Position numbers and translations under genes: made by a program. From Patescibacteria group bacterium (GTDB lineage Bacteria; Patescibacteriota; Patescibacteriia; GWA2-46-9): a DNA stretch of 64,000 bases. Shown piece by piece: positions 15,572 through 37,886 of the stretch. The notes below the pieces were generated by a model, which saw only the letters and a list, made by a program, of their open reading frames with translations, was not told where the DNA came from and did not search any database. The DNA lies in assembly GCA_041675205.1 (NCBI GenBank), contig JBAYUF010000003.1, forward strand, positions 111,025-175,024, given 5' to 3'. Position 1 is the first letter of the stretch. Every line of letters starts with the position of its first letter.

Positions 15572-15595
15572 TATGCGTGACGAGAACAGAGGTTT

Positions 15596-16282: not shown

Positions 16283-16292
16283 ACTTTGGGCA

Positions 16293-18361: not shown

Positions 18362-18435
18362 TGGGGGATCGTCTAATGGTAGGACAGCGGCCTTTGAAGC
18401 CGTGAATCATGGTTCGAATCCATGTCCCCCAGCCA
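18362..18435 (+). tRNA. tRNA-Gln (anticodon UUG), CCA encoded
   Basis: Acceptor TGGGGGA/TCCCCCA, anticodon loop CTTTGAA, T-arm CATGG-TTCGAAT-CCATG, discriminator G, then CCA. Confidence 0.85.
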
Positions 18436-18960: not shown

Positions 18961-18986
18961 ATTGCGAACGAGGTGTATAGATAAAT

Positions 18987-20204: not shown

Positions 20205-20309
20205 TGTCGCATTTGTCGCTTTGAATCCGTTGCGAAGAGCCTCAAGGTGTTATAATAAAGAACATCAGAAAACACTTTTCTGCTTCCTTCTTGTAATAGA
20301 ATCATTTAT

Positions 20310-21032
20310 ATGAAACACCAACTTCTTTATAAGGATCTCGCTCGTTATTACGATCATATTTATTCATTTAAAAATTACGAGGCTGAGACCAAGGAACTGC
20401 GTAGTCTTATTGAAAAATATAAGCGTTCCAAGGGAAGCGACATGCTCGACATTGCCTGTGGTACCGGGAAACATTTAGCCTATTTCAAGCGTTGGTATTC
20501 GTGTATTGGGGTTGATGTTAATGAGGGTATGCTACGGGTGGCCCGGAAAAAGATTAAAGGTGTCGTTTTTAAAAAAGGTGACATGACGACACTGAAACTC
20601 AATCGGACTTTTGACGTTATTACCTGTTTATTTAGTTCAATAGGATATGTTCGCACCTATGCAAACCTAGGAAAGACTATCATTGCTTTGTCTAAGCATT
20701 TGAAGCCAGGTGGTGTGCTTATTATTGAACCCTGGTTTACGCAAAAAACATATCGGCCAGGCTTACCGCATATGACGACATACAGTTCCCCGGATATAAA
20801 AATTGCGAGACTTAATGTAAGTGAACGTCGTGGCAGTGTGTCGGTCATGGATATGCATTATCTTGTCGCCGAGCGGGGGCATAAGGTGAAATATTTTGTT
20901 GACCGCCATGAACTCGGCATGTTTGAGCCAGATCGTTTGATAGGTCTAATGCGAAAGGCAAACCTCGAGACGCGCCTTGCAAAGTCAAAACTGATGAAGG
21001 ACCGCGGGTTGTATGTTGGCGTTAAGGTTTAA
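20310..21032 (+). CDS. class I SAM-dependent methyltransferase (TylM1/DesVI-like small-molecule methyltransferase)
   Basis: The N-terminal Y..YD.IY...Y..E pattern and SAM motif I (LDIACGTGKH) resemble sugar N,N-dimethyltransferases. Confidence 0.65.
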   Translation: MKHQLLYKDLARYYDHIYSFKNYEAETKELRSLIEKYKRSKGSDMLDIACGTGKHLAYFKRWYSCIGVDVNEGMLRVARKKIKGVVFKKGDMTTLKLNRTFDVITCLFSSIGYVRTYANLGKTIIALSKHLKPGGVLIIEPWFTQKTYRPGLPHMTTYSSPDIKIARLNVSERRGSVSVMDMHYLVAERGHKVKYFVDRHELGMFEPDRLIGLMRKANLETRLAKSKLMKDRGLYVGVKV

Positions 21033-21072
21033 AAAATTTGTATTAGGCGTATTGGCGTGCATTTAAAAAAAT

Positions 21073-21819
21073 ATGGATGAAGAAATAAAGATCAATGAAT
21101 TCAATAAAATTTTAGAGCAGGCAAAAAATGACGATAGGGTTATCGGGCTAATTTTAGCTGGCGGACGCGGCAAGGGCATGTTCACAGAAAATTCTGATTA
21201 CGACGTTGCTATAATTACAACCGATGAATCGATTTTAGGTGTTAAGGAAGATTACAAAGGCACACAAGATATTATTGATATAGGGGTATTATCGATATCT
21301 GAATTTAGAATATATGCAGCAGTAGGAACAGCGGAAGACTGGGATAGATATACTTACGCACATATAAAAGCTCGCATTGATAAAACAGGAGAAATCCAAA
21401 AGATAATTGATGAAAAAGGTATTTTGCCGCAAGAGCAAATATCAAAAGTAGCAAAAAAAGCTTTGTGTGGTTATCTAAATTCTTTGTATCGTGCTTTAAA
21501 AAATCACAGAGACGGAAACGAATTTGCCTCGCGTTTAGACGCTTGTGAATCTTTGCCTTGGTTACTAACCTTTCTCTTTGCAGTTGAGGGGCGAGTTCGT
21601 CCGTACAATAAGTTTCTGAAATGGGAACTTGAGAACTATCCATTAAAGAATCTACCAATCTCATCTGAAGATTTTTTAGCAAAAATCGAATTAATTATCA
21701 AAATAGGCGATATTGAAATCCAAAAAGAATTTCATAAAATTGCAGAAGAAATTGCAGTAAAAAATGATTGTGTTGATGTGATAGACGACTGGGCAGGATA
21801 TTATTTTGCTAGAGAATAA
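21073..21819 (+). CDS. nucleotidyltransferase-fold protein, ANT(6)/AadK-like
   Basis: The N-terminal minimal NTase motif GGRGKG...SDYDVAII and the overall length match aminoglycoside 6-adenylyltransferase-like proteins. Confidence 0.5.
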   Translation: MDEEIKINEFNKILEQAKNDDRVIGLILAGGRGKGMFTENSDYDVAIITTDESILGVKEDYKGTQDIIDIGVLSISEFRIYAAVGTAEDWDRYTYAHIKARIDKTGEIQKIIDEKGILPQEQISKVAKKALCGYLNSLYRALKNHRDGNEFASRLDACESLPWLLTFLFAVEGRVRPYNKFLKWELENYPLKNLPISSEDFLAKIELIIKIGDIEIQKEFHKIAEEIAVKNDCVDVIDDWAGYYFARE

Positions 21820-21825
21820 TTAAGC

Positions 21826-22475
21826 ATGACACTCCTTAAATTCGAAAACATTCCTATACATGAATGCGGAGACGAACTCGTTAATCTAGGCGAATACGAC
21901 TTCGCTCTTGAACCGGTCTATTTCAATTTAGGTTTCTCTCCGGAGCCACGTATTTTTCTTCGTAAATCAGTCGTCGACAAACTTATTGGCATACAGAATA
22001 GTCTGAACGGATATCGCTTTAAGATCTGGGATGGTTTTCGCCCGCGTTCTGTACAGCAGAAGATTTATGAAAAGTTTTGGAATGAGCTGAGTGAAGCACA
22101 TTCCGAATGGGACGAAGAAAGATTGAAGATGGAAGTTGGTGTGTTTGTCACCACGCCTAACGACCAAAACCGCATTCCTCCTCATGCCACAGGTTCAACA
22201 GTTGACCTAACGCTCGTTGACTCGGATGGTAACGAACTCGATATGGGTACGGCATTTGATTATTTTGACCAGAAGCAGCGGCTTTCTACTTTGACGAGAA
22301 TCCGGGAAACTTGACGGCAGCAAAGAATAGAAAGCTACTTCGAGAGACAATGTATGCTGGGGGTTTTGGAGGAGACAAAGACGAGTGGTGGCACTTTGAC
22401 TATGGGAATCAGAAGTGGGCAGTCGAGCTAGGTCACGCTGAAGCGATGTTCGGAGAGGCTGAAATTCCTAAATGA
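21826..22475 (+). pseudogene. VanX-like D-Ala-D-Ala dipeptidase (peptidase M15D), disrupted by a frameshift
   Basis: The N-terminal 162 aa ORF (21826-22314) carries the active site PHATGSTVDLTL and DYFD. The C-terminal conserved part (AAKNRKLLRETMYAGGF...EWWHFDY) is encoded in a different frame, 22269-22475. The shift lies between about 22270 and 22312. Confidence 0.6.
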
Positions 22476-22942
22476 GTTCCTGCATTACTTCTGAGCAAAA
22501 ATCTATGCAACCATCAAAACACCCAAAAGTAGGTTTAGGTATTATTATCGTTAATAGTGAAGGGCGTATTTTAATTGGCAAGCGGATAGGGAGTCATGCC
22601 CAAAAATATTCTATTCCTGGGGGCCACTTAGAAATGGGTGAGACATTTGAGGAGGGAGCTATTCGAGAGGTCAAAGAGGAAACTAATTTGAATATAGTTG
22701 AACCGAAAGTAATTGCCATTACTAATAATTTAGAAACTTTCAAAGAAGAAGGGGAGCACTACATTTCTGTCATTCTTCTGGCACGAAAATATACGGGCGA
22801 ATTAATAAACATGGAGCCGGATAAATGTGAAGAACTTATTTGGGTAGACCCCAAAAATCTCCCTCAGCCTCATTTTGACGCAAGCGCATTAGGAGTATCG
22901 TGCTATTTGAAAGGCAGTTTTTATAGTGGGGCTGATTTTTGA
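22472..22942 (+). CDS. Nudix hydrolase
   Basis: Nudix box GGHLEMGETFEEGAIREVKEETNL. The 3' end runs into a copy of the GGGGCTGA repeat, so the C-terminus is uncertain. Confidence 0.7.
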   Translation: MSSCITSEQKSMQPSKHPKVGLGIIIVNSEGRILIGKRIGSHAQKYSIPGGHLEMGETFEEGAIREVKEETNLNIVEPKVIAITNNLETFKEEGEHYISVILLARKYTGELINMEPDKCEELIWVDPKNLPQPHFDASALGVSCYLKGSFYSGADF

Positions 22943-22977
22943 TTGTAGGAGTATAATGAATTTGAACCGGGCGAAGG
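22926..22977 (+). repeat. third copy of the GGGGCTGA...TTGATTGTAGGAGTATAATG(G/A)ATT(C/T)GAACC...GGCGAAG element
   Basis: Near-identical to 18806-18863 over about 50 nt. Confidence 0.6.
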
Positions 22978-23065
22978 GCTTGGGAATCGGAGGCTGGCAA
23001 ATTGGGTAATCTGATCCAAATACTTTTTAGGAGACTAGTGGTGTAAAGAAAAGGGAGAAATAATT

Positions 23066-24883
23066 ATGGCCAAAATAAAAGACATTCCAAAAGTAGATCG
23101 CCCAAGGGAAAAGTTCCTACAAAAGGGCTCGGAAGCACTTTCAAAAAGTGATCTTTTGGCAATCTTGCTTGGCAGTGGAATAAAAGGGAAAAATGTAAGA
23201 CAGCTTTCCGAGAATATCATTAAAAAATTTGGTAATAAATTTTTAGATATCAAAGTGGATGATTTGCTTCAGGTCTCAGGAATAGGCCAAGCAAAAGCAC
23301 TACAAATTGTTTCTGCTATTTCTTTGGTAAAAAGATTTTACGATGAGCAAAAAAGAAGCGAAATTATAATAAAGAATCAGCAGGATGTCTTAGCCCTGAC
23401 GTACGATCTGACAGATAAGAAGAAAGAGTACTTAGTCTGTCTCTATTTAAACACGAGAAATGTCTTGATAAAAAAAGAGGTTGTTAGTGTTGGATTACTC
23501 GATAAAAGCTTAGTTCACCCCAGAGAAATATTTCATCCAGCCGTTGAATTTAATGCCGCTAGTATTATTTTAATTCACAATCATCCCTCCGGAATATCAG
23601 ACCCGAGTGAGAAAGATATTGAGATTGTTAAAAAAATATCCCAGGCTGGTGACATAATGGGAATTGCTGTAATTGATTTTGTTATTACTGCTAACAATGG
23701 GAGTTATAGTTTTTATGACAAACTACAACAAGGTAAGAAACATTTGGATTACGTTGCTGACGGCATACAAGGAACCTTATTTGATCTTTTAGAGATTGAA
23801 AAGCCGACTTATGAAATAAATGCCGAAAAGATACAAGAAAATTATTTTTATATTCCTCAAATTAAGAAGAATCACCTCCAGTTACAAAATCGGAGATATA
23901 TTGGAAGTAAGCATAAACTAATTGAATGGATTTTTTCTATAATCAATAAAGAATGCGAGAAACGAAGTTCCTTTGCTGATGTCTTTGCAGGCACCGGAGT
24001 TGTTTCGGCTGTCGCGGCTAGGCATTTTGATGAAATCATATTGAACGATTTTCTACATTCAAATTATGCAATCTATCAGGCTTTTTTTGGTAATGGTAAG
24101 TGGGACAAACAAAAGCTTGACGATATAATCAAAAATTACAATAACATCAACGGTGAAGACCTAGAAAAGAATTATTTCTCTGAAAACTTTGGCGGAAAGT
24201 ATTTCAGTCATAATTCCTCAAAGATAATTGGATTCATAAGAGAAAATATTGAGGAAAATAAAAGCAATTTAACTGATAAGGAATATTATATTCTCATTGC
24301 TTCTTTGTTGTATTCAATTGATAAGGTTGCAAATACGGTTGGTCACTACGATGCCTATTTCAAAAAGGATCATTTTGAAGACGGGTTTTTTATGAGACCA
24401 ATTGATCCAATCGAAGTAAAGAGAGTGGCTATCTTTAGAGAAGACACAAATCTTTTAGCAAAAAAAATTAAAGCCGATGTTGTCTATATTGATCCTCCAT
24501 ATAATTCAAGACAATACAGTCGTTTTTATCATGTGCTTGAGACTCTAACGAAGTGGGATAAACCAAGACTTTATGGAACGGCATTAAAACCCGAAGAAGA
24601 AAATATGAGTGATTACTGTAAGGTACGAGCAAGAGATAGACTTGCCGAGTTGGTCCGGGACTTAGATGCCAAATATCTAGTAGTGTCATACAACAATACT
24701 TACGATTCAAAAAGCAACTCTTCAAAAAATAAGATCACCCTGCAGGAAATAAAAGATATTTTAGTCTCTAAGGGTAAAACAAAGGTTTTTGAAAAAGACT
24801 ACAGGCATTTTAATGCCGGAAATACCGATTTCAAAAATCATAAAGAATACTTGTTTGTAACTACCACAGACTATGCAAAGTAA
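23066..24883 (+). CDS. RadC-like JAB/MPN domain fused to Dam-like (alpha-class) N6-adenine DNA methyltransferase (R-M methylase M1)
   Basis: Residues 1-220 carry the RadC HhH plus JAMM motif HNHPSG...SEKD. The C-terminal part carries YIGSKHKL, FAGTG (motif I) and DPPY (motif IV). The RBS is AAAAGGGAGAAAT. Confidence 0.8.
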   Translation: MAKIKDIPKVDRPREKFLQKGSEALSKSDLLAILLGSGIKGKNVRQLSENIIKKFGNKFLDIKVDDLLQVSGIGQAKALQIVSAISLVKRFYDEQKRSEIIIKNQQDVLALTYDLTDKKKEYLVCLYLNTRNVLIKKEVVSVGLLDKSLVHPREIFHPAVEFNAASIILIHNHPSGISDPSEKDIEIVKKISQAGDIMGIAVIDFVITANNGSYSFYDKLQQGKKHLDYVADGIQGTLFDLLEIEKPTYEINAEKIQENYFYIPQIKKNHLQLQNRRYIGSKHKLIEWIFSIINKECEKRSSFADVFAGTGVVSAVAARHFDEIILNDFLHSNYAIYQAFFGNGKWDKQKLDDIIKNYNNINGEDLEKNYFSENFGGKYFSHNSSKIIGFIRENIEENKSNLTDKEYYILIASLLYSIDKVANTVGHYDAYFKKDHFEDGFFMRPIDPIEVKRVAIFREDTNLLAKKIKADVVYIDPPYNSRQYSRFYHVLETLTKWDKPRLYGTALKPEEENMSDYCKVRARDRLAELVRDLDAKYLVVSYNNTYDSKSNSSKNKITLQEIKDILVSKGKTKVFEKDYRHFNAGNTDFKNHKEYLFVTTTDYAK

Positions 24884-25778
24884 AATCAAAAGATCCCCTT
24901 TGTTTTACGTCGGGGACAAGTACAAGCTAATGAAACAGTTGGCTGGTTTATTTCCAAAGGAAGTAAGCAACTTTTATGAGCCGTTTGTTGGTGGTGGAAC
25001 AGTTTTTTTAAATGTTCGTGCCGATAAATATTATTTGAATGATAATGACAAAAATCTCATTAACATACACCGGTTTTTGGTGGGAAGTTCAAATAACCCA
25101 GATGTATTTTTTAAGAATGTAGAAAAGGTAATAAAAAAGTATCGTCTATCACGATCATACAAGGAAGACATAATTCCTGTTTCATTAAAAAGAGAGTGGA
25201 AGAAAACCTATTTTGCTAGATTCAATAAAGAGGGCTACGAGAAGTTAAGGGTTTGTGTAAATAAGAATTTAAAAAATGATCCCCTGGTTCTGTATATATT
25301 GCTAATCTACGGATTCAACAGGATGTTGAGATTCAATGGAGGGGGTAAGTTCAATCTACCGGTTGGCAATGTCGATTTTAATAAAAATGTTGTTAACGCC
25401 CTAAATGAATACTTTGACTTTACTCGGAACAACAAAATAGCTTTAAGCTCGAAAGATTTTAGAAGCTATTTTGTTGGCCGAAAATATTGGGAAAACGACT
25501 TTGTTTATCTCGACCCGCCATACCTGATAACTGCTAGTGAATACAACAAACGGTGGGATCAAAAAGCGGAAGCTGACTTACTAAAAATAATTGATGATCT
25601 CGACAAAAAAGGTGTTAAGTTTGCCCTGTCGAATGTAACTCATTATAACGGTAGTAAAAATGAGTTACTGATTGACTGGATGAAAAAATATAAGACTCAC
25701 AAGATAGTGAGCAATTACATCAGTTATCACAATAACGGCAAGAAACAGATTAAGGAAGTGTTGGTTACCAATTATTAA
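24873..25778 (+). CDS. Dam-like N6-adenine DNA methyltransferase (R-M methylase M2)
   Basis: Contains YVGDKYKL, EPFVGGGTVFLN and DPPY. The gene overlaps M1 by 11 nt. Confidence 0.8.
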   Translation: MQSKIKRSPLFYVGDKYKLMKQLAGLFPKEVSNFYEPFVGGGTVFLNVRADKYYLNDNDKNLINIHRFLVGSSNNPDVFFKNVEKVIKKYRLSRSYKEDIIPVSLKREWKKTYFARFNKEGYEKLRVCVNKNLKNDPLVLYILLIYGFNRMLRFNGGGKFNLPVGNVDFNKNVVNALNEYFDFTRNNKIALSSKDFRSYFVGRKYWENDFVYLDPPYLITASEYNKRWDQKAEADLLKIIDDLDKKGVKFALSNVTHYNGSKNELLIDWMKKYKTHKIVSNYISYHNNGKKQIKEVLVTNY

Positions 25779-25782
25779 ATAT

Positions 25783-27318
25783 ATGAAAACAAAAACAAGA
25801 GAATCAGAATATAAACCATTATTGTTTACTACCACACTCAGAAATCCGGAAAGGCTCAAGTGGTTTTTAGGAGTCCTTAAGGACTATGACGGTAAAGTTC
25901 TCGATGATCAGTTGGCGGAAGAAATCTCCGGAGAAGTCATTAGAGTTGGCTTGTATAAACCGACAAAGATAAGTGCTGCTATAAAGAAAAAAATTGAAGC
26001 AAAAGAGCCATTGTCCGATTCCGAAGTCATAAAGATTCTTGAGGACAATCCGCAGAATCACAAAGAGGCCGGTTTTAGTAAGGGCTGGGCTTCTCGATTT
26101 GATACCTGGTTTAAGATCGCCAAGGAGCTTGGCTTTGTCTATTACAAAAATGGTGAAAAAATCAGATTTTCTGATATCGGATTAAAATTAGTTGATAATG
26201 AACATCCCGAATTTGAACAGCAGGCTTTTCTGAACGCCTTTGTAAAATACCAAAGTAATAGTCCATTTAGACGAGTCCTCAACGAAAATGCGCCACTCAT
26301 TTTATTGCTCAATGTTATCAATGAAGTAAACGCGGATAAGGATTTAAACGGGACCGGAATTTCTAAATTAGAATTACCGCTGATTATCTTTTGGAAAGAT
26401 GATGACGCGCAGGGACTATACAAGCTTATAAAGAAAATCAGAAAAGAACACGGCTATACCCCGAGTTGGGAAGTTATTGTTGGCATTTGTGCTAACCAGA
26501 TTATGAAGGGTGATTTCAAAAAGTTTAATCCGAAGTCAATAATGGTTGACTATCCGGATGAATTCATCAGGAAAATGAGGTTGACCGGGCTGATCTCATT
26601 AAGAGGAGCTGGTCGTTTCGTTGATATAAACAGAAACGAACAATCCAAGGTTGATTATGCTCTAGCTAAATATTCTCAATATGAGAAGTATGCAACGGAA
26701 GAAGAGTATTTTGAGTACATGTCGACCGTGGACAAAAACCTAATCTCGTTTGTTGCTAAACCGGTAAGTGTTGGTGAAAGAGATGCGTTTTTGGCAAAGT
26801 GGGTTGGTATTTACCCTTGGAACAAAATTAAGGCCGAAATGTTAAATCTTGCAAATAAAAAGCTCACGAAAGATGATGTTTTAAAATACCTATCAAATCC
26901 CGTCAGACTTGAGTTTTTAGTGTCTTTGGCCATCAAATCAAAATTTCCAAGTGTTAAGGTGATCCCCAATTATCCTTATGATGACGAAGGAATTCCGACC
27001 TCAACAGCTGGAGGTGTTGGAAACAAAGGTGATATCGAATGCTTCGAAGATGTTAAGGGTATATTGGTTGAAGTAACTATGTCTGAAGGACGTATGCAAA
27101 CCATGATGGAAGTATGGCCGATCTCAAGACACCTGGAAGAATTCAAAAAAAGCGCACCAGATTCAATGTGTTATTTTGTGGCACCTAGCATATTCAAAGA
27201 TTCGGAAATGCAGATTAATTATGTCAAAGAAAAAAAGAATCTTTCAATCTTGCCGAAAACAATTGATGAATTTTTGACTCACATAGAGAGTAGGGAGACT
27301 CTATACGCGGCTACGTAA
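25783..27318 (+). CDS. type IIS restriction endonuclease, AlwI family (N.BstNBI/MlyI/PleI/AlwI-like)
   Basis: Several blocks match N.BstNBI from memory: PLILLLNVINEV...ISKLELPLIIF, RKMRLTGLISLRGAGRFV, and the C-terminal GNKGDIECFEDVKGILVEVTMSEGRMQTMMEVWPISRHL (PD-D/ExK-like). It lies directly downstream of the two methyltransferases. Confidence 0.7.
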   Translation: MKTKTRESEYKPLLFTTTLRNPERLKWFLGVLKDYDGKVLDDQLAEEISGEVIRVGLYKPTKISAAIKKKIEAKEPLSDSEVIKILEDNPQNHKEAGFSKGWASRFDTWFKIAKELGFVYYKNGEKIRFSDIGLKLVDNEHPEFEQQAFLNAFVKYQSNSPFRRVLNENAPLILLLNVINEVNADKDLNGTGISKLELPLIIFWKDDDAQGLYKLIKKIRKEHGYTPSWEVIVGICANQIMKGDFKKFNPKSIMVDYPDEFIRKMRLTGLISLRGAGRFVDINRNEQSKVDYALAKYSQYEKYATEEEYFEYMSTVDKNLISFVAKPVSVGERDAFLAKWVGIYPWNKIKAEMLNLANKKLTKDDVLKYLSNPVRLEFLVSLAIKSKFPSVKVIPNYPYDDEGIPTSTAGGVGNKGDIECFEDVKGILVEVTMSEGRMQTMMEVWPISRHLEEFKKSAPDSMCYFVAPSIFKDSEMQINYVKEKKNLSILPKTIDEFLTHIESRETLYAAT

Positions 27319-27322
27319 ATAT

Positions 27323-28237
27323 ATGAACAAAAAACTAATTACCGTTGCACTTTTCTTGCTCCTGGTGCTAGCTGTTGCTTTCTCGCTCGCATATTTTTTC
27401 ACCCCCAAGACGGGTATTCTCAACAAAGAAGACGCTATAAATGCTGTCATTCGGTTGCACCCCGAATTAGAAGCATATAAAACCACCTCGCTTCCACCGA
27501 GTTCTATTGAGACGAAAGAAGCAAGAGATGGATGGTATGTTGGATTCATTCAAAGCGGAAGCGGCGTGCCGGGAATATTAAATGCAAAGTGCTATAAGGT
27601 TGATGAAAAAAATGTGGCACCAGTCGGAACGTATGCGGGGGATAGCACTAGGACTACGAAAAGTATTGTACTTCAGACGTGCGAACCGGTATTCGCCGAA
27701 CAACCAACTGAAACATTTTTGGCTTACGGTGACGTAGAACTTCAGTTGAATCAACTCGCCACATTTAAGGACATAGCAATTCGCCCACTTTCAATTGAAG
27801 AAGATAGTCGTTGTCCAAATGATGTGCAATGTATTCAAGCGGGAACAGTGCGCGTAAAAGTTGAAATTCTATCAGGTGTGAAATCAAGCACGAGCATTCT
27901 AAAGCTTGGAGAACGTTTTACGACTGAAGGCGAAATTATAACGCTGAATAGTGTCACGCCCGTTACTAATTCCAAAGTGAAGATTACTGATAAGGACTAT
28001 CGTTTTGTTTTCAGTGTTGTTCAAGAGTTAGTAAAAAATCCGGATCCGGAAGGAAAATGTTTTGTTGGCGGATGTTCGTCACAGTTGTGTACAGACCAGC
28101 CAGACGCTGCATCAACCTGTGAATATAAGAGCCAGTATGCTTGCTTTAAAGCAGCAAAGTGCGAGAGGCAATCGAATGGCCAGTGTGGTTGGACAGAGAC
28201 AGAAGAACTTTCCGCTTGTCTTGCAAAAGAGAACTAA
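27323..28237 (+). CDS. hypothetical secreted protein, Cys-rich C-terminus
   Basis: An N-terminal signal/TM segment and 10+ cysteines in the last 70 aa. Confidence 0.45.
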   Translation: MNKKLITVALFLLLVLAVAFSLAYFFTPKTGILNKEDAINAVIRLHPELEAYKTTSLPPSSIETKEARDGWYVGFIQSGSGVPGILNAKCYKVDEKNVAPVGTYAGDSTRTTKSIVLQTCEPVFAEQPTETFLAYGDVELQLNQLATFKDIAIRPLSIEEDSRCPNDVQCIQAGTVRVKVEILSGVKSSTSILKLGERFTTEGEIITLNSVTPVTNSKVKITDKDYRFVFSVVQELVKNPDPEGKCFVGGCSSQLCTDQPDAASTCEYKSQYACFKAAKCERQSNGQCGWTETEELSACLAKEN

Positions 28238-28314
28238 GCCGGGCAAATCTCATAGTCTTCATTCAAGACTCCTTTCAGGAGTCTTGATGACTTTGCTATA
28301 CTTACGGTAAGACA

Positions 28315-28611
28315 ATGCTGAAAGAATACATACAATACATAAAAGACAATCCAGAGCACTATTGGTTTAAACGCAAGCTTTACGGCTGGGGCTGGACACC
28401 TGCTACCTGGCAGGGGTGGCTAGTTCTTGCGATATGGCTTGTACTCGTCTTGATGTTTGCGTTTACTCTCGACGAAAATTCGCCCACGCGCGAAGTAATG
28501 TTCACCTTTATTTTACCAGTTACTTTGTTAACCCTTACGCTTATTCGCATTGGTTACAAAACCGGTGAAAAACCTAGCTGGCAATGGGGATTACCAATCG
28601 ATAAGAAATAA
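28315..28611 (+). CDS. small membrane protein (hypothetical)
   Basis: Two TM segments. 98 aa. Confidence 0.4.
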   Translation: MLKEYIQYIKDNPEHYWFKRKLYGWGWTPATWQGWLVLAIWLVLVLMFAFTLDENSPTREVMFTFILPVTLLTLTLIRIGYKTGEKPSWQWGLPIDKK

Positions 28612-28626
28612 TTAATAACAAACTAT

Positions 28627-29082
28627 ATGAAAGAAACACTGCATTTCGAAATTAACATTCAGGCTCCTGTAGAGAAAGTATGGGACACCATGTTGACGTT
28701 AGAAACTTACAAAGAGTGGACGAGTGTTTTTGAACCAACGTCTTACTATGAAGGGTCTTGGGAAAAGGGAAGTAAAATTCTGTTTCTCGGAGCAGGAGGC
28801 AGCGGCATGGTTTCGGAAATTGCTGAAAATATTCCGCATAAGTTTATTTCCATCAAACACCTGGGTCAGATGAAAGACGGCATTGAAGACACCACCAGCG
28901 ACGAGGTAAAAAAATGGACTCCGGCATTTGAAAACTATACGTTTACTGATAACGGCACAGAAACACTGCTTGCGGTTGATATGGAAATGGAATCAACGCC
29001 AGAGTCGGTGGAATTAAAGGAACAATTTGAAGGCATGTGGCCAAATGCATTGCTGAAATTGAAAGAGATTTGTGAACGGTAA
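28627..29082 (+). CDS. SRPBCC superfamily protein (AHSA1/START-like ligand-binding domain)
   Basis: Pattern ...INAPVEKVWDTM...YKEWTSVF matches AHSA1-like proteins. Confidence 0.6.
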   Translation: MKETLHFEINIQAPVEKVWDTMLTLETYKEWTSVFEPTSYYEGSWEKGSKILFLGAGGSGMVSEIAENIPHKFISIKHLGQMKDGIEDTTSDEVKKWTPAFENYTFTDNGTETLLAVDMEMESTPESVELKEQFEGMWPNALLKLKEICER

Positions 29083-29701
29083 TTTTTCGGCTGACACGAA
29101 AAAATACAATAAAGCACTTACTTCTGAGTACAGTAAGATCTGCGATGTACTGGCTCTGGAAATTTACCGTGCCCTACCCAAAGCAGAAAATAAAATCTGG
29201 CACAGGAGCCCGGTTTGGTTTATAGAAGGCAATCCAATTGTTGGGTACGACAAATTAAAAGACTGCGTGCGGCTTCTTTTTTGGAGTGGTCAGTCTTTCA
29301 AGGAAAAAGGCCTAAAGAAAGAGGGTAGTTTTAAAGCTGCTGAAATTAGGTATACTGCGGCTGAACAAATCAACATTAAAGATTTGAAACGTTGGTTGAA
29401 AAAAGCACAAACGATTCAGTGGGACTATAAAAATATTGTTAAAAGAAGGGGAGTGTTGAAGAAGGTTGTTCCCGCGAAGAAGTCTGTAATTGTTCGTGGT
29501 TTTACTATCAAGTATCACGCGAACGGGAGCACTGTTTGGTCGAAGGGAAAAATGAAACAGGGTAAGCCTGACGGCTTTTGGCAATGGTACCGCCCAGACG
29601 GAACACTTAAGCGTTCCGGCTATTTCAATGCAGGGGAGTCTGTAGGCAAGTGGACGACATACGACCAAAAAGGAAAAATCTACAAAGTGACTCAGAAATA
29701 G
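29072..29701 (+). CDS. DUF1801 (YdhG-like) domain fused to MORN-repeat (YwqK-like) domain
   Basis: The N-terminal 120 aa match the YdhG/DUF1801 pattern. The C-terminus is GKPDGFWQWYRPDGTLKRSGYFNAGESVGKWTTYDQKG, a MORN variant. Confidence 0.5.
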   Translation: MNGNFSADTKKYNKALTSEYSKICDVLALEIYRALPKAENKIWHRSPVWFIEGNPIVGYDKLKDCVRLLFWSGQSFKEKGLKKEGSFKAAEIRYTAAEQINIKDLKRWLKKAQTIQWDYKNIVKRRGVLKKVVPAKKSVIVRGFTIKYHANGSTVWSKGKMKQGKPDGFWQWYRPDGTLKRSGYFNAGESVGKWTTYDQKGKIYKVTQK

Positions 29702-29711
29702 ATTTAATGAA

Positions 29712-30155
29712 ATGGATATCGTTACCTCAGATCGCTACAAACTGATCGCTTCCGTCTACCTGTTGTTCGTAAAGAATGACAAGATTTTGTTGCTCCTTCG
29801 AGCTAATACTGGGTATGAAGATGGCAAATATGGCCTTGTGGCTGGTCACCTTGAATCGGGTGAATCATTAACGAACGGCGCCATACGTGAAGCAAAAGAG
29901 GAATCCGGCGTTGTTATCGAGCCGAGTGATCTTGTGCTAAGAGCCACAATGCATCGCCGACAATTTGACGAGCGATTAGATTTCTTTTTTGAAGTAAAAA
30001 AATGGAGTGGGGAACTTAGGAATGCAGAGCCGGATAAGTGCGATGATTTGAGCTGGTTTCCGTTAGACGATCTACCGGCAAATACTATTCCGTATATTCG
30101 TCAGGCCATAGACTGCTACCGCAAGGATATTGGTTATTCTGAGTTTGGTTGGTAG
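29712..30155 (+). CDS. Nudix hydrolase
   Basis: Nudix box GHLESGESLTNGAIREAKEESGV. Confidence 0.75.
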   Translation: MDIVTSDRYKLIASVYLLFVKNDKILLLLRANTGYEDGKYGLVAGHLESGESLTNGAIREAKEESGVVIEPSDLVLRATMHRRQFDERLDFFFEVKKWSGELRNAEPDKCDDLSWFPLDDLPANTIPYIRQAIDCYRKDIGYSEFGW

Positions 30156-30208
30156 CTCTGTTCTCTCTCCTTATTTTCCAAAGGACTTTCAAAAAATAAA
30201 TTTTAACC

Positions 30209-30727
30209 ATGACAACTTCTCATAAATTCAGTCCAATAGAAAACCGGGGTCAGCTATTAGAAGCGATAATGTATACACATTTTAAATGCTTTGAGCTCTG
30301 CAAAAATAATTTTGGGCGGTATCTTTCTGTTGCTGGCAATATCGGAATATTTTGTCACTTTGAAAACGAATACGAATTTCTTACAAAATTAAGGAAAGAG
30401 CTCACAGAGGAATCCAACAACTGGAATCAAAAGTATTATCGGCTTCTTGAACCCATTTTCATACCCACCAACGGTGACATACCGGAAACAGTGTATACAT
30501 ATCTATATATTCGGAAGCCGGATGAGCACACGGAAGTTGGTGATGTTGATTTCATTTTAGGCGTCGAAGAATTTAACGAATTAAAAAATTCTTTGCAGTC
30601 AGGCAAGGAGATGAAAGGTATTAGATTATTTAGTCGTCCGGATCTTGATCTAATAAGATTGTTTGATGCGTCCACAGACGTTCTTGCCTTTATTGGCAAG
30701 AAAAACATGGCTGAAAACATTTTATAA
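30209..30727 (+). CDS. hypothetical protein
   Basis: A 172 aa AT-rich ORF. No motifs. Confidence 0.4.
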   Translation: MTTSHKFSPIENRGQLLEAIMYTHFKCFELCKNNFGRYLSVAGNIGIFCHFENEYEFLTKLRKELTEESNNWNQKYYRLLEPIFIPTNGDIPETVYTYLYIRKPDEHTEVGDVDFILGVEEFNELKNSLQSGKEMKGIRLFSRPDLDLIRLFDASTDVLAFIGKKNMAENIL

Positions 30728-30834
30728 AGAGTGTTACACTGTAACAGGAAAAATTTAACCTATCTTTTTGTGCTTATCAGAAACAAGTACGCACAAAGAC
30801 GAAATTATTATTCAGTCGTGATTGTCATTGTCTA

Positions 30835-31449
30835 ATGGATTCCAAAGTCACAACGTTCATATTTGACTGCTTTGATGTCTTATTGGCACCAGTTGTTACC
30901 CGCTGGTATAGAGAAAACAGTGCCAAGTTAGGCTTCGTTGATGAAAACCTACAAGACATTTTACGGCAGTTTGACCTCGCGCTTTTATCTGAAGCCGATC
31001 TGATGGAGTATTTACTGAAGTATCCAGGCGTAAACTCTACAGTTGCAAAACTTCAAAGCGAAATTGATGCCCATCTCGAAATTGATGAGGCACTTGTAGT
31101 AGTAATTAAAAAGTTAAAAAACAAAAGCTTCAAGACCGCCTTATTGTCGAACGCCAACCATTCTTTCTTTGAAAGAAAAGTATATTCAACATATCCAGAG
31201 TTCAAAGGACTATTTGATGAGATAGTCATTTCTTCTGCTGTTAAGATGGTCAAGCCAGACAAAAATATCTATTTGTATACTCTTGCCAAAATTAATTCAA
31301 AGGCGGAAGAGTGTTTATTCATCGATGACAACAAAACCAACGTTGCCGCTGCGGTTGCATTAGGCATGAATGGTTACGTCTATACAGACTACAAATCCTT
31401 TGCAGATTTCATTACTGAATCAGGTATCGAGCTTGAGGCGGGCGTATGA
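30835..31449 (+). CDS. HAD-superfamily hydrolase (phosphatase-like)
   Basis: Motif I FDCFDVL, motif III K, and C-terminal DD (FIDDN) are present. Confidence 0.7.
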   Translation: MDSKVTTFIFDCFDVLLAPVVTRWYRENSAKLGFVDENLQDILRQFDLALLSEADLMEYLLKYPGVNSTVAKLQSEIDAHLEIDEALVVVIKKLKNKSFKTALLSNANHSFFERKVYSTYPEFKGLFDEIVISSAVKMVKPDKNIYLYTLAKINSKAEECLFIDDNKTNVAAAVALGMNGYVYTDYKSFADFITESGIELEAGV

Positions 31450-32354
31450 CAGAACAGGTGGCCGCCACAATTGAAATCGGTGGCAAATCATACGAACACG
31501 TAAAGACTCGAGAGTATACACCCGTTGCAATTTATAAATGCGACGGCGAGTTTCTACGTATTGCGCCAAAAGAAGTACTGACGCCAGAATTAACTTTACA
31601 CAAAAAGATTTTGAGCTACGGCTTTCCTGTTCCGAACATTCTCGCCGAGGGTGAATTGGATGGAATGCTTTACTACACAGAGCAGTCGTTTGGGGACAAA
31701 TTACTAGGCGACCTGTTTTGGGAAGACTGTAAACAAGGTGGTGAAATATCTAGCGAGCATTTTAATTTTTTTCTAAACGTTTCAGAGAAGTTTGCTTTAG
31801 CGCAATTAAAAACTGCAATTGATGACAAGGACGACGAAGGTTTTTACATGGGCATTCACGTTAATGATATAATCGAAGAACTTCCAAAGTTAGAGACCAC
31901 CGTTATTGCTGCGTTCGAAAAGACGAAGGAGAGAACTAGAGCTTTGCCAACGGTTCTGACTCACGGTGACTTAAATGCCCATAACATGTTTCAGGCTGGA
32001 ATAATTGATCTTGGCAGTACCCACACGGCTCCAGCTGGGTATGATTTAATCGGTAATATCTACCATACCTACAATTTCCCTAAGACTGGGGAGTATGAAA
32101 GTATGAGAAGGTATGATTTCACAGCGAATCAAATTAGTGAGTACCTTAGAGTAATTGATGCGATTTATACTGAAAGTGGTTTGCCAAGGTTAATCGACTT
32201 TAAAGATGATTTCATTTTCGCGAAGTCCGTTTGGTCTACTGTGAGAATGTACAGATATCCGAAACTGAAGAAGTGGCGCCAAGACCGTTTTAAGAAGATT
32301 TTGGTCAGCTACCTCAATGGGCAACCTCTGGCGCAAATAATTTTTGAGTCATAA
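31446..32354 (+). CDS. aminoglycoside-phosphotransferase-family (APH/choline-kinase-like) small-molecule kinase
   Basis: The Brenner motif LTHGDLNAHNMF and IDLG (DxG) are present. ATGA overlap with the HAD gene. Confidence 0.7.
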   Translation: MTEQVAATIEIGGKSYEHVKTREYTPVAIYKCDGEFLRIAPKEVLTPELTLHKKILSYGFPVPNILAEGELDGMLYYTEQSFGDKLLGDLFWEDCKQGGEISSEHFNFFLNVSEKFALAQLKTAIDDKDDEGFYMGIHVNDIIEELPKLETTVIAAFEKTKERTRALPTVLTHGDLNAHNMFQAGIIDLGSTHTAPAGYDLIGNIYHTYNFPKTGEYESMRRYDFTANQISEYLRVIDAIYTESGLPRLIDFKDDFIFAKSVWSTVRMYRYPKLKKWRQDRFKKILVSYLNGQPLAQIIFES

Positions 32355-32363
32355 TCAACTACT

Positions 32364-32801
32364 ATGCCACTTGACGACAAGGAACAATATTACGTCGCAG
32401 TCAAAGTCTTTTTAAAGAAGGACGGCAGGCTGCTTATTATGAAAGACAAGTTCGGCGACTGGGACTTGCCGGGTGGCAGAATTAGAAAAGATGAATTTTC
32501 TGTACCGCTTCAAGACGTGGTTGAACGAAAAATGCTTGAAGAACTTGGGGGCGACATTCGTTATACAATTGGTAAACCAGTGGTGTTTATGCGCCACGAG
32601 CGTGTTGAGCAAGTACCAGGTAATCCAACCGTACGTATTTTTGCTATTGGATATGAGGGCACGCTTGAAAGTGGTGAAATAGTACCGTCAGAGTTGCACC
32701 CCGAGGTATTGTGGGTTGATCCGAAAAGTTTTAGGCCAGAGGATTACTTTACCGGCGGCTGGCTTACTGGTGTCAAAGAGTATTTAAATCAAAGTATATA
32801 G
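32364..32801 (+). CDS. Nudix-like hydrolase (divergent Nudix box)
   Basis: GGRIRKDEFSVPLQDVVERKMLEELGG approximates the Nudix box but with altered spacing. Confidence 0.5.
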   Translation: MPLDDKEQYYVAVKVFLKKDGRLLIMKDKFGDWDLPGGRIRKDEFSVPLQDVVERKMLEELGGDIRYTIGKPVVFMRHERVEQVPGNPTVRIFAIGYEGTLESGEIVPSELHPEVLWVDPKSFRPEDYFTGGWLTGVKEYLNQSI

Positions 32802-35219
32802 ATGACCTGGATTAAACCATTTTCAGAGATTTCCAAAGATGACGCCGCTATAGCGGGTGGCAAGGGCGCTTCTTTGGGAGAAATGACCCAGGCCGGTATA
32901 CCCGTGCCAGAAGGTTTTGTGTTGCTTGCAACGGCATTCGAGTCTTTTTTTGAAAAAACTAGTCTTGCTACTGAGGTAGCTGCTATCCTCAAAACCGTTC
33001 GGGCTCAAGATATGAAAACAATTGAGCATGCTTCCGAGCAAGCGCAGTCACTTATTCTTCAAAAAGAAATACCAGAAGATATTGTCAAAGAAATTGAGAA
33101 AGAATTTTCTAAACTCGGTGCAGAGTTTGTGGCCGTTCGTTCGAGTGCCACTGCGGAGGACAGCGCCGAGGCAGCATGGGCTGGCCAGCTCGATACATTC
33201 TTGAATACAACAAAAGATACGCTGCTAGAGAATGTGCGCCGATGCTGGGCGTCACTTTTTACACCAAGAGCAATTTTCTATCGTATTGAAAAGGGTTTAC
33301 TTACGGCAAAGATTTCTGTGGCAGTTGTTATTCAAAAAATGGTACAGAGCGAAGTGTCTGGCGTAGCGTTTTCTGTTCATCCAGTCACTGAAGACAGGAA
33401 TCAAATGATTATTGAAGCCGGGTTCGGGCTAGGAGAGGCTATTGTTTCAGGACAAATTACACCAGATTCATACGTGATTACGAAAATACCGTTTGCCATT
33501 TCTGACAAGAATATTTATTTTCAGAAACAACTTCTGCGCAAAGCAAAAGGTGTAGGCAATGAGTGGCATGAGCTCAACGAAAAGGCGGGAAGCAAACCCG
33601 CGCTGTCTGACAAGCAGGCGCTGAGGCTGGCGAAAATAGTTGTCGGCATTGAGGAACACTACGGCGTACCATGTGATATAGAGTGGGCTTTTGAGGCCGA
33701 TCAATTCTTCATTACTCAGAGCAGGCCAATAACAACGCTACATAATGATACTGGTGAAAAGAAACATGCTTATGAGTTTTCTTGGGGCGAGAGGCATTCA
33801 ATTATTTCAGCGGAATCTTGGTTGAGAGGATATATTTCTTTGCGTGATGTCATTGGAAACGAGAACATGAATGTTTTTCTGTACGTTAATAAAGGTCAGG
33901 TAAATACATATAATTCAAAAGAAGATTTGCCAGTAGCCATAGAATCTGGAAGAGAGGTGCTTAATCACAAATTCTTAAAAAAGCACCTAAAGAATACATT
34001 TACAATTCGGGAAAAGTTTAAAGGGTTAGCTGAAAAAGTTAATAAAGTAAAAATGCCGAAGGCCTCGGATGAGGAGTTGCTCTCATATTTTGTGGCCTAT
34101 CAAGATTTATTTGATAAAACTTGGTCCTGGTTTAAAGTTTCTCAGCCTGAGTATCTTGAATTAGCAAAGGAAAAACTGGAAGAATTAATCAATGAAAGAA
34201 AAATTCTAAATCCAAATGAAGTATTTATAATCTTAACGAAGCCCACTGAGATTGATTTAATAAAAGAAGAAGAGTTGGCTGCTCTCAAGTGCTCGCTTGG
34301 AAAGGTTAGTGGCGAAAAATTGTTGCGACATGCAGCGCAATATCCTTGGTTATGTTTCAACACTTATGACCAAAGTACAATTCTGAAATTTTTAGAAAAA
34401 AAATTTGCCGATTTGGCACAAATTCCGGTTGCGGAAAGAAGAAAGAAAATTGAATCCATAGAACTTGAAATCCAAGAGCATCGAAGTAATCGTGACGCTC
34501 TTTTAAGGGAACTTGGAAGCGATAGCGATGTGAAGTATTTATCATCTGTTTTTGGCACCCTTGCTGTTGATCGTTTAAGAATGAAAGCGTGGTGGGGTGG
34601 CGCTGAATATTTGTTTCTGCCACTTTTTCAAGAAATTGCTAAGCGGGCAGGCGTTTCAGTTGAGGATTTATTTATGGGCTACAAAATTGAAGATATTATT
34701 GAGCTACTTCAAAATCGGAATTATCTTGACAATCGGACTATTGCTGAACGAAAAGAAATATATGCCATTGCCATCGAAGAGGGGAAAATGAGGTTTTATG
34801 AAAAAGACGAGGCTCAAGATATTTTTTATTCAATCATAGGCTCACAAAAGACATCCATTAATTCATCTGACACAATTAGAGGTGTTATTGCTAATACTGG
34901 TAAAGCAGAAGGCAGAGTCAAAGTTATTGTAGTTGAAGATTTAAAGACTCTGATTGCAGACATGGATAGATTTGAAAAAGGGGACATCATGGTAACAACC
35001 ATGACTCAGCCTACAATGGTCTCATTGGCTCGCAAGGCAGCTGCAATCGTAACTGACGAAGGTGGAATAACGTCACATGCCGCCATTTTGGCTAGAGAGT
35101 GCAATATTCCGTGCATCGTGGGTACCAAAATGGCCACACAAATCCTGAAGGACGGTGATATTGTTGAAGTGGATGCTGAAATAGGTGTTGTAACCATAAT
35201 AGAAAGAGAGTCTGATTAA
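32802..35219 (+). CDS. PEP-utilising phosphotransferase, rifampin-phosphotransferase-like architecture (PPDK_N ATP-grasp N-domain + C-terminal swivelling phospho-His domain, no PEP TIM barrel)
   Basis: The N-terminus (ISKDDAAIAGGKGASLGEM...) is a pyruvate phosphate dikinase-type ATP-binding domain. The C-terminus (GDIMVTTMTQPTMVSLARKAAAIVTDEGGITSHAAILARECNIPCIVG) is the mobile His domain. The 805 aa length and domain order match RPH/PpsA-like antibiotic kinases. Confidence 0.7.
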   Translation: MTWIKPFSEISKDDAAIAGGKGASLGEMTQAGIPVPEGFVLLATAFESFFEKTSLATEVAAILKTVRAQDMKTIEHASEQAQSLILQKEIPEDIVKEIEKEFSKLGAEFVAVRSSATAEDSAEAAWAGQLDTFLNTTKDTLLENVRRCWASLFTPRAIFYRIEKGLLTAKISVAVVIQKMVQSEVSGVAFSVHPVTEDRNQMIIEAGFGLGEAIVSGQITPDSYVITKIPFAISDKNIYFQKQLLRKAKGVGNEWHELNEKAGSKPALSDKQALRLAKIVVGIEEHYGVPCDIEWAFEADQFFITQSRPITTLHNDTGEKKHAYEFSWGERHSIISAESWLRGYISLRDVIGNENMNVFLYVNKGQVNTYNSKEDLPVAIESGREVLNHKFLKKHLKNTFTIREKFKGLAEKVNKVKMPKASDEELLSYFVAYQDLFDKTWSWFKVSQPEYLELAKEKLEELINERKILNPNEVFIILTKPTEIDLIKEEELAALKCSLGKVSGEKLLRHAAQYPWLCFNTYDQSTILKFLEKKFADLAQIPVAERRKKIESIELEIQEHRSNRDALLRELGSDSDVKYLSSVFGTLAVDRLRMKAWWGGAEYLFLPLFQEIAKRAGVSVEDLFMGYKIEDIIELLQNRNYLDNRTIAERKEIYAIAIEEGKMRFYEKDEAQDIFYSIIGSQKTSINSSDTIRGVIANTGKAEGRVKVIVVEDLKTLIADMDRFEKGDIMVTTMTQPTMVSLARKAAAIVTDEGGITSHAAILARECNIPCIVGTKMATQILKDGDIVEVDAEIGVVTIIERESD

Positions 35220-35243
35220 ATTATTCCGTGATAAACTACTAGA

Positions 35244-35660
35244 ATGACTCAGATTCCAGAGTGTTTTTATCGCGTAAGTATAAAGGGGTTAATACTCGAC
35301 GAAACTCGAACCAAGTTTCTTGTTTGTCTTGAAGACAATGGCTTGTGGGAACTACCGGGCGGGGGATTAGATTGGGGCGAATCAATCGAGAACTGTCTGA
35401 AGCGTGAAATTAAGGAAGAGATGGGCCTCGACACTACGTTCATTAGCACGCACCCACTATACTTCACGACAAGCATTAGTTTAAGAAATACCTGGTTTGT
35501 TAATGTTATCCATGAAGTAAAGGTTAAAGATTTAAATTTCAATCCTTCCGACGAATGCCGGGAAATTCGGTTTGTTTCACCAGAAGATTTGGCGTCTATA
35601 AATGTTTACAATAGTGTGAAAGAATTAGGACTACAGTTCGATAGTTCAAGACATATATAA
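35244..35660 (+). CDS. Nudix hydrolase
   Basis: Nudix box GGGLDWGESIENCLKREIKEEMGL. Confidence 0.7.
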   Translation: MTQIPECFYRVSIKGLILDETRTKFLVCLEDNGLWELPGGGLDWGESIENCLKREIKEEMGLDTTFISTHPLYFTTSISLRNTWFVNVIHEVKVKDLNFNPSDECREIRFVSPEDLASINVYNSVKELGLQFDSSRHI

Positions 35661-35665
35661 CTTTT

Positions 35666-37878: not shown

Positions 37879-37886
37879 TTCTTCAA

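Follow-up and report, generated by a model that had tools for sequence, protein, structure and literature searches.

The stretch analysed here (the window) comprises 64,000 nucleotides of contig JBAYUF010000003.1 of a Patescibacteria group bacterium (assembly GCA_041675205.1). Between ftsEX and a tRNA-Gln gene on one side and a housekeeping block on the other, it carries an accessory run of ~18.4-43 kb in which nearly all genes lie on the plus strand (Table 1). Seven of these had been singled out from the sequence alone as a cluster resembling an antibiotic-inactivation toolkit: two methyltransferases, a nucleotidyltransferase (NTase), a broken D-Ala-D-Ala dipeptidase, a kinase coupled to a phosphatase, an 805-aa dikinase and a short-chain dehydrogenase/reductase (SDR). 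All seven exist at or near their proposed starts. They extend over 20.8 kb (20310-41127) instead of the proposed ~15 kb, with only five inside 20310-35219, and at least 15 other genes, which the original prediction omitted, are interleaved among what it described as one cluster. As set out below, a dedicated antibiotic-resistance cassette is unlikely, and we lean towards a mosaic accessory segment of stand-alone enzymes.

Table 1. Features of the accessory run and its left border, in window coordinates.
Feature	Coordinates	Strand	Basis and remarks
tRNA-Gln (UUG)	18362-18435	+	ARAGORN, Rfam; left edge of low-GC stretch, GC falls just 3'
351-bp tandem duplication after tRNA-Gln	18425-18950	+	the tRNA-Gln 3' end recurs twice within it, in degenerate form
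405-aa open reading frame (ORF)	18987-20204	+	GC 0.34; no assigned family
Class I S-adenosylmethionine (SAM) methyltransferase, DesVI/TylM1 homologue	20310-21032	+	PDB matches, Pfam
Two-domain NTase (NTase core + helical bundle), ANT/Lin fold	21073-21819	+	Pfam, AlphaFold2 (AF2)/structure match
Frameshifted D-Ala-D-Ala dipeptidase (M15, DdpX/VanX type)	21826-22475	+	Peptidase_M15 fragment
Nudix hydrolase 1	22472-22942	+	Pfam E 2e-21; MutT-like but below cutoff
Type IIS (AlwI-family) restriction-modification system	23066-27318	+	Pfam, PADLOC
RadC-Dam methyltransferase fusion	23066-24883	+	part of AlwI-type system
Second Dam-class methyltransferase	24873-25778	+	part of AlwI-type system
AlwI-family endonuclease	25783-27318	+	part of AlwI-type system
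SRPBCC/AHSA1 protein	28627-29082	+	Pfam-type domain scan
DUF1801 protein	29072-29701	+	domain scan
Nudix hydrolase 2	29712-30155	+	domain scan
HAD-IA phosphatase, YihX-like	30835-31449	+	8pno E 2.1e-8; NCBIfam
APH-fold kinase	31446-32354	+	start overlaps HAD stop codon (ATGA)
Divergent Nudix-fold protein 3	32364-32801	+	28.3 bits; abuts dikinase start, 0-nt gap
805-aa small-molecule dikinase	32802-35219	+	Pfam, NCBIfam, AF2, Foldseek
Nudix hydrolase 4	35244-35660	+	
RNase II/R-family 3'-5' exoribonuclease (RNB + S1)	35666-37147	+	GC 0.51
Generic class I SAM methyltransferase	37144-37878	+	
Second SRPBCC/AHSA1 protein	38795-39223	+	
Nudix hydrolase 5, YfcD/IPP-isomerase-like	39232-39732	+	
Classical SDR, generic	40450-41127	+	

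The resemblance to resistance enzymes is real at the level of folds for four genes, those of the ANT, APH, RPH and VanX/DdpX types, and in each of these the catalytic motif is either intact or at least encoded. The largest of them, the dikinase, is composed of an ATP-grasp domain (residues 1-~315), a helical central domain (~320-690) and a C-terminal His-swivel domain (~690-800). In Pfam, the PPDK_N ATP-grasp covers residues 17-322 and the PEP-utilizers mobile domain residues 724-794, and neither PEP-utilizers_C nor a TIM barrel was matched. The RPH-like domain order, proposed from the sequence, thus stands. The catalytic H759 lies in GGITSHAAILARE and is invariant, as are the ATP-grasp residues, in 23 orthologues. 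By sequence, the best match is the phosphoenolpyruvate (PEP) synthase 8a8e (E 1e-92), which is confined to the ATP-grasp and the swivel; residues ~320-690 have no sequence match in PDB, including none to the rifampin-binding domain of RPH. An AF2 model built with the 23 orthologues (pLDDT 87) was searched with Foldseek, where five Listeria RPH entries lead over the full length (E 1.8e-38 to 2.4e-28, ~912-922 columns), with 5hv1 (RPH-Lm) at the top (E 1.8e-38, 914 aligned columns). They are followed by the ATP-grasp component HpeI (9goj), and PEP synthase aligns over just 357 columns. Because the RPH entries align along the whole protein and PEP synthase does not, the central domain is RPH-like in fold. 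The curated RPH models nevertheless score far below their cutoffs (RIF_Ptrans_rph NF041857, 350.8 vs 999 bits; Rph NF000283, 243.3 vs 1700), their best stretch covering residues 4-315 only, and the PEP synthase model TIGR01418 also falls short (414 vs 739.75 bits). From sequence and model, we predict that the dikinase is a small-molecule enzyme of the RPH/HpeHI superfamily that is neither an RPH nor a PEP synthase. A tblastn search of the window with the 805-aa protein returned only the protein itself, with no paralogous module.

The first methyltransferase had been called TylM1/DesVI-like, which holds over its full length (DesVI 3bxo, E 1.3e-39, residues 9-238 of 240; TylM1 3pfg, E 4.4e-33). 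Both known enzymes are dTDP-3-amino-3,6-dideoxyhexose N,N-dimethyltransferases that act in biosynthesis and not in inactivation, and the window homologue differs from them in having no macrolide cluster around it. Domains of the dTDP-aminosugar pathway (aminotransferase, 4,6-dehydratase) were absent from all ORFs scanned across the window.

For the NTase, the proposed ANT(6)/AadK likeness is upheld by the fold but not by the family model: Pfam NTP_transf_2 gives 23 bits, and the ANT(6) family PF04439 gives 11.9 bits against a gathering score of 22. Among 30 members of the NTase family, PF04439 is matched by 20 at E up to 1 (best E 2.6e-5), and D42 and D44 are invariant in the 30 homologues. 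No NCBIfam resistance model was matched, and a sequence-only search of PDB yielded nothing useful, so that a structure model was needed. The AF2 model (pLDDT 94) confirms a predicted ANT-like nature at the fold level only. Its top structural matches are ANT(6)-Ib (8VXB, E 1.5e-6), LinB (3JYY) and ANT(4') (1KNY), with E 1.5e-6 to 2e-4 and TM scores up to 0.66; they share the NTase core and the C-terminal helical bundle, and the N-terminal motif of the window protein aligns to ANT(6)-Ib. In contrast to these enzymes, with which it is 12-18% identical, the window NTase is shorter (248 aa vs 284-306 for ANT(6)) and is a member of a family that is conserved across Patescibacteria and encoded in chromosomal contexts (285 relatives of ~246 aa; 45-87% identity among the 120 matches listed).

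The dipeptidase pseudogene is indeed frameshifted: the N-terminal 162 codons lie in frame 1 (stop at 22314), and frame 3 carries the EWWHFDYG motif (stop at 22475) and overlaps the start of the Nudix 1 gene by ATGA. The break lies near 22270-22290, not at a long homopolymer. The M15 fold is shared with DdpX and VanX, and none of the catalytic elements (Arg, His-x6-Asp, ExxH) is missing from the DNA. A VanX-specific assignment did not hold, as the housekeeping DdpX model is preferred (45 bits vs 28.3 for VanX, cutoff 320) and the protein is below cutoff on both; unlike in the known systems, the reading frame is broken, and no ligase or dehydrogenase partner (vanH, van-ligase) occurs among the annotated window ORFs.

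The proposed coupling of the APH-fold kinase to the HAD phosphatase agrees with the overlap of the two genes. YihX, an alpha-D-glucose-1-phosphate phosphatase, is the closest solved relative of the phosphatase. The kinase scores 28.5 bits with Pfam APH (gathering score 23.2) and carries the Brenner motif HGDLNAHN and IDLG, of which HGDxNxxN and IDxG (H173-G-D175...N180 and D188) show no variation among 28 homologues. Judged from their invariant residues, this kinase, the dikinase (His759) and the NTase (D42, D44) all look like active enzymes. No NCBIfam family, and hence no resistance-kinase model, was matched at E up to 0.01, PDB gave no match by sequence, and a search with the family profile finds nothing beyond 3csv (E 0.007) and methylthioribose kinase (E 0.021). 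From the phosphatase onwards (30835-38333), the HAD, APH, Nudix-like, dikinase, Nudix, RNase II, methyltransferase and ORF148 genes follow one another with gaps of -4, 9, 0, 24, 5, -4 and 8 nt. Since these gaps are only -4 to 24 nt, the run is probably co-transcribed and the only physically coupled unit of the region. The two remaining genes, for a methyltransferase (37144) and the SDR, encode generic members of the families proposed for them.

Linkage of these genes was assessed in ~95 loci of related genomes, comprising 80 dikinase-homologue loci, the three closest dikinase orthologues, five or six APH-homologue contexts and three NTase-homologue contexts. The 80 loci were searched by tblastn with 33 window proteins and the remaining contexts with the proteins of the region. 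None of the APH, HAD, Nudix, NTase, M15 and restriction-modification genes was found near the dikinase homologues in the 80 loci. The toolkit genes were likewise absent beside the closest orthologues (70, 60 and 56% identity) and around the APH- and NTase-homologue contexts, and the pairing of HAD and APH was seen nowhere else among the loci compared. The neighbours themselves vary: an MFS transporter and a serine recombinase, RecA/FtsK/ribosomal genes or glycosyltransferase/MreB genes beside dikinase orthologues, and MurB, NTP_transferase, EF-Tu or a grab-bag of Nudix, SDR and hydrolase genes beside APH homologues. In one contig of the candidate phyla radiation (CPR), the APH homologue is surrounded by a comparable assortment of genes (LdcA, Nudix, pyrophosphatase, Ser hydrolase, APH, SDR). 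Because the genes do not co-occur near homologues and the contexts vary, the cluster is not a conserved functional unit, and a conserved operon was rejected, as the other genes never co-occur near homologues in the loci compared. The closest dikinase orthologue (70% identity; loci L089-L091) lies beside an MFS_3/MFS_1 transporter gene, and on another contig beside that of a large serine recombinase, which hints that the closest dikinase subfamily moves on mobile elements together with the transporter.

Base composition sets the run apart from its surroundings. GC drops from 0.45-0.51 to 0.34-0.43 between ~18 and ~35 kb; per gene, it is 0.34-0.45 over 18987-35660 and ~0.47-0.51 in the flanks. 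The lowest values (0.34-0.35) belong to the 405-aa ORF, the NTase and both restriction-modification methyltransferases, and the remaining genes up to 35660 have 0.38-0.45. The lower GC is thus real, yet it forms a gene-by-gene mosaic. At the left edge, the degenerate copies of the tRNA-Gln 3' end inside the tandem duplication lie at 18579-18595 and 18930-18946 (3 matches vs 0.11 expected), and a terminator/promoter-like 41-mer of the duplication (TTTTTGATTGTAGGAGTATAATG...) recurs at 22936-22976 with 93% identity, just 5' of the restriction-modification operon. The duplication and the recurring 41-mer may have been left behind by several rounds of integration or recombination. Rfam returned the tRNA alone plus chance-level matches, giving no small-RNA reading of the repeats.

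The original prediction had placed the genes in an acquired island. The GC deviation, the tRNA-Gln gene and the restriction-modification system agree with this, but other signs of mobility were not found. Among the usual marks of a tRNA-integrated island, the border tRNA and the deviating GC are present, and the integrase and the distal tRNA-end repeat are missing: copies of the tRNA end lie only at ≤600 bp from the tRNA, with none further downstream, and Pfam, PADLOC and PHROGs scans of the region returned no integrase, recombinase, transposase or phage-like gene. Bases 18400-35300 have no megablast match among phages or plasmids, and IMG/VR holds no viral relative of the 405-aa ORF or the dikinase. 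The 405-aa ORF itself, beside the tRNA repeats, has no match in Pfam, NCBIfam, PADLOC or PHROGs, and for want of a family or viral match an integrase or phage origin, of this ORF included, was rejected. A metagenome scan with FtsX gave relatives at 34-36% identity only, from which insertion boundaries are not mappable. 'Acquired' plausibly fits parts of the region, and not one clean island.

Among the other genes of the run, the AlwI-type type IIS system is complete, with two methyltransferases and the endonuclease in one operon (PADLOC MTase_II E 1.5e-127 and 1.3e-104, REase_II E 2.1e-127; gene spacings -11 and 4 nt). Its first methyltransferase has an N-terminal RadC/JAB domain (UPF0758_N + RadC), an unusual fusion partner for a Dam-class enzyme. 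Directly after the restriction enzyme gene, a 304-aa Cys-rich protein is encoded (27323-28237), whose C-terminus resembles the 'eight-cysteine-cluster / CGP-CTERM-anchored' family (NCBIfam E 1.2e-9, below cutoff). A PNPOx-like protein is also present in the region. The five free-standing Nudix genes (22472, 29712, 32364, 35244, 39232) fall within 17.3 kb; the Nudix box of the third protein is degenerate, none being found by motif. Their mutual identity of 23-34% rules out a recent gene duplication. Outside the run (58275-59519, minus strand), a WecG/TagA glycosyltransferase carries a sixth Nudix domain as a fusion.

The flanks are made up of ordinary housekeeping genes. Upstream are those for a ClpB-like ATPase, glycosyltransferases, MreB, RecR, DnaB, an AlaX-like editing domain and FtsEX; downstream are those for an EamA transporter, a cation antiporter, HtrA, NDH-2, GreA, LysRS, SerRS, an FtsQ-like protein, GluRS and ClpB. 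The AlaX-like protein (12480-13226) is stand-alone and consists of the C-terminal part of the alanyl-tRNA synthetase core and a tRNA_SAD domain. Two ClpB-family AAA+ genes occur in the window (304-3093 and 59556-62279), the first of which has strong AAA matches only C-terminally (residue 670 onward) and no Clp_N match.

Outside the window, the dikinase belongs to a very large family in CPR bacteria and DPANN archaea: 8,000 candidates were scored, nearly all of which pass E 1e-10, and the 80 homologue loci were fetched. Where aligned as a separate segment, the ATP-grasp of relatives is 52-69% identical to that of the window dikinase, and the central-plus-swivel segments are 26-57% identical or do not align. 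One ATP-grasp is present in 78 of the 80 loci, with 0-8 swivel modules per locus, and 24 of the 37 loci of ≥15 kb have at least three. The modules are either fused into giant ORFs or encoded by consecutive separate genes. In such arrays (L045 9989-22648; L007 9989-18433; L017, L021, L074), a single ATP-grasp precedes as many as eight modules in tandem, every one of which has a catalytic His-swivel at its end; locus L045, for instance, has a 2,388-aa ORF (9989-17155) with four catalytic GGxx[SC]H motifs. The regions preceding the swivels within an array are mostly dissimilar, as 1-6 of 10-28 pairs match, with 24-38% identity. Inteins were considered for homologue spans of ~3.4 kb (query 2.4 kb) and rejected, as mapping of high-scoring segment pairs and ORFs showed extra swivel modules. 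The window dikinase is the single-module form. Some multi-module relatives (P0019, P0025-P0029 and others) carry Epimerase_2/UDP-GlcNAc 2-epimerase (PF02350) or AcnX-swivel (PF01989) domains, and in three loci (L014, L022, L065) the array is flanked by a GT2 glycosyltransferase gene and by mreB; the epimerase domains and these neighbours may point to sugar or cell-envelope substrates for the arrays. A literature search found no description of dikinase arrays in CPR or DPANN, which is not proof that they are undescribed, and these arrays, outside the window, are potentially the only new element of this work.

Taken together, we regard it as somewhat probable that the 18.4-43 kb segment is a mosaic, tRNA-Gln-adjacent accessory segment of stand-alone group-transfer and hydrolytic enzymes, plausibly serving salvage or damage control of imported metabolites. 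In this minimally biosynthetic organism, each of the group-transfer enzymes would most likely act alone on a small molecule. In the dikinase, ATP would load His759 of the swivel and the beta-phosphate would then pass to a substrate hydroxyl, with release of AMP and Pi; these steps (ATP to pyrophospho-His, to phospho-His and Pi, to the substrate hydroxyl, the substrate being held in the helical central domain) are proposed by analogy, the mechanism being that shown for RPH and HpeHI (PMC4844700, PMC12167813). The APH-fold kinase would phosphorylate another hydroxyl through the Brenner Asp175, the ANT-fold enzyme would nucleotidylate a small molecule, and the HAD and Nudix enzymes would remove or trim phospho- or nucleotidyl groups. 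The scavenging or modification of host-derived metabolites, which the original prediction offered beside detoxification or resistance, fits the data slightly better than resistance. Three observations weigh against such a collection of independent genes. Four antibiotic-modifying folds in one 15-kb stretch are suggestive, the tight same-strand packing would suit an operon with a common purpose, and the Nudix density is high, with five genes in 17.3 kb vs 2 in ~141 kb of Pfam-annotated CPR context (~0.25 expected in 17.3 kb; crude Poisson P ~6e-6, against a background that is neither random nor large), which hints at some shared selective logic beyond independent genes.

A more specific form of salvage, of host-derived cell-wall sugars and nucleotides, would make the APH-fold protein an anomeric or other sugar kinase comparable to AmgK or methylthioribose kinase, and would have the HAD enzyme act on sugar-1-phosphates, and the Nudix and RNase II enzymes feed nucleotide pools; we consider this improbable, yet worth keeping in view. 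The marginal profile matches of the kinase family include no antibiotic kinases, and its homologues adjoin MurB and a second APH gene in one locus (L083), a sugar-1-phosphate NTP_transferase gene in another (L084), as in the AmgK-MurU pair, and lie near the LD-carboxypeptidase gene ldcA in a further one. The relation of the HAD enzyme to the glucose-1-phosphatase YihX points in the same direction, and CPR bacteria depend on imported building blocks. These associations nevertheless hold for only 2-3 of 6 homologue loci, the others lying by EF-Tu/ribosomal or copper ATPase genes, and the kinase has no HAD partner elsewhere. Similarly improbable are the further roles that this explanation assigns, a decayed DdpX-type dipeptidase that recycled D-Ala-D-Ala and a DesVI-like enzyme that modifies a nucleotide-sugar: DesVI and TylM1 act on dTDP-sugars, but no dTDP-sugar pathway genes flank the methyltransferase. 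The dikinase is left without a role.

A role for the dikinase is central to a bolder proposal that we rate as doubtful, namely that it is the single-module form of a large, apparently undescribed CPR/DPANN branch of RPH/HpeHI-type dikinases, a polyvalent phosphorylation battery, and that the 30835-38333 run is transcribed as one unit, which phosphorylates, nucleotidylates and then recycles imported molecules. If true, one ATP-grasp serving many modules would detoxify or capture many host or environmental compounds. With its hypervariable central domains and its arrays of several modules, the family suggests that ultrasmall symbionts have a capacity to phosphorylate small molecules that is yet to be explored. 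Such dikinases are routinely misannotated as PEP synthases, which would inflate the inferred gluconeogenic capacity of CPR and DPANN. The dikinase family is a more useful lead than the resemblance of the window to a resistance locus.

That resemblance underlies the antibiotic or xenobiotic inactivation toolkit itself, according to which ANT-, APH- and RPH-type enzymes, gathered in an acquired resistance island, would inactivate antimicrobials of neighbours or hosts. This explanation has the structural data on its side, as the best PDB structural matches are resistance enzymes (RPH-Lm; ANT(6)-Ib, LinB, ANT(4')) with intact catalytic motifs in the window proteins; it also accommodates the lower GC beside a tRNA gene, the transporter and recombinase near the 70%-identical dikinase orthologue, and the divergent resistance-like genes found across CPR genomes (PMC8651080). 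We nonetheless judge it very unlikely. The original prediction had named resistance-family hidden Markov models scoring below threshold as grounds against itself, and because the curated models are all far below cutoff (RPH, VanX) or unmatched (ANT, APH), the toolkit is to be doubted; the fold resemblance of the four genes stands, and a dedicated resistance cassette is unlikely. The other ground named there was best matches to housekeeping paralogs, of which one example, a genuine PEP synthase with a TIM barrel, does not apply to the dikinase. The rifampin-binding domain of RPH has no sequence counterpart in the dikinase, and Stogios et al. (2016) found that distant clades of the superfamily retain the phosphotransfer residues and not rifampin specificity, one member giving no resistance (PMC4844700). 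The Patescibacteria-wide spread of the NTase family, at constant length and in varied chromosomal contexts, suits housekeeping over mobile resistance. In addition, the M15 gene is broken and without a vanH or vanA-type partner, DesVI and TylM1 methylate sugars for biosynthesis, the SDR and the methyltransferase at 37144 are generic members of their families, clustering is not conserved, and an integrase or transposase was not found in the region. Fold-level likeness to resistance enzymes can thus mislead in CPR genomes, and published CPR 'resistomes' should be taken as functional resistance only with caution.

Least likely of all is a defence island, in which the restriction-modification, Nudix and NTase genes would be anti-phage functions at a tRNA hotspot: a complete type IIS system, five Nudix proteins that match the PADLOC candidate system PDC-S07 (best E 8.5e-12), a weak match of the NTase to PDC-S09, the defence NTase Hailong HalB among its structural matches and tRNA-adjacent repeats that suggest past integrations are set against the facts that any Nudix domain would give the PDC-S07 match, that HalB ranks below a dozen ANT structures, that PADLOC gives no match for the dikinase, the kinase, the HAD phosphatase, RNase II or the SRPBCC proteins and that the region holds no phage-like genes.

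The window is one more instance of a phenomenon described by Maatouk et al. (2021, mSystems), who reported rph-, aad-, aph- and vanX-like matches in 4,062 CPR genomes, with a mean of 7.5 per genome, and stated that their divergence suggests other functions (PMC8651080). Local clustering was unaddressed there; here it was compared with relatives and is not conserved. The window genes are new members of known superfamilies, and the dikinase can be compared with three characterized groups. With PEP synthase and pyruvate phosphate dikinase it shares the ATP-grasp and swivel that give the top sequence scores, which is why it is labelled 'phosphoenolpyruvate synthase' in sources; unlike them, it lacks the PEP/pyruvate-binding TIM barrel, and its swivel is C-terminal and not central. 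With RPH-Lm (PDB 5HV1/5FBS; PMC4844700) it shares the order of ATP-grasp, large helical domain and C-terminal His-swivel, the ATP-grasp superposing on 5hv6 (TM 0.92, rmsd 2.1 Å), and the catalytic His is kept (His825 in RPH-Lm). It differs in an overall structure-based identity of 24%, in a central substrate-binding domain without detectable sequence similarity, in scores of about one third or less of the RPH equivalog cutoffs and in a swivel motif of the PEP-synthase type, GGxTSH with Thr, at a position where RPH and phenol kinases have Met (PMC12167813). Within the Arg666-Glu667...Lys670 block of RPH, Glu667 appears to be Leu in the dikinase, judging from spacing only. HpeHI, CreHI and PpsAB (PMC12167813) have the same chemistry and domain set, and HpeI (9goj) ranks sixth among the structural matches of the dikinase (E 7.7e-25). 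As in these systems, many CPR/DPANN relatives of the dikinase are split into an ATP-grasp part and separate substrate-and-swivel proteins. The window dikinase, by contrast, is one fused chain without accompanying aromatic-catabolism genes (carboxylase, phosphatase), and where HpeHI has one module per ATP-grasp, the CPR/DPANN versions have up to eight.

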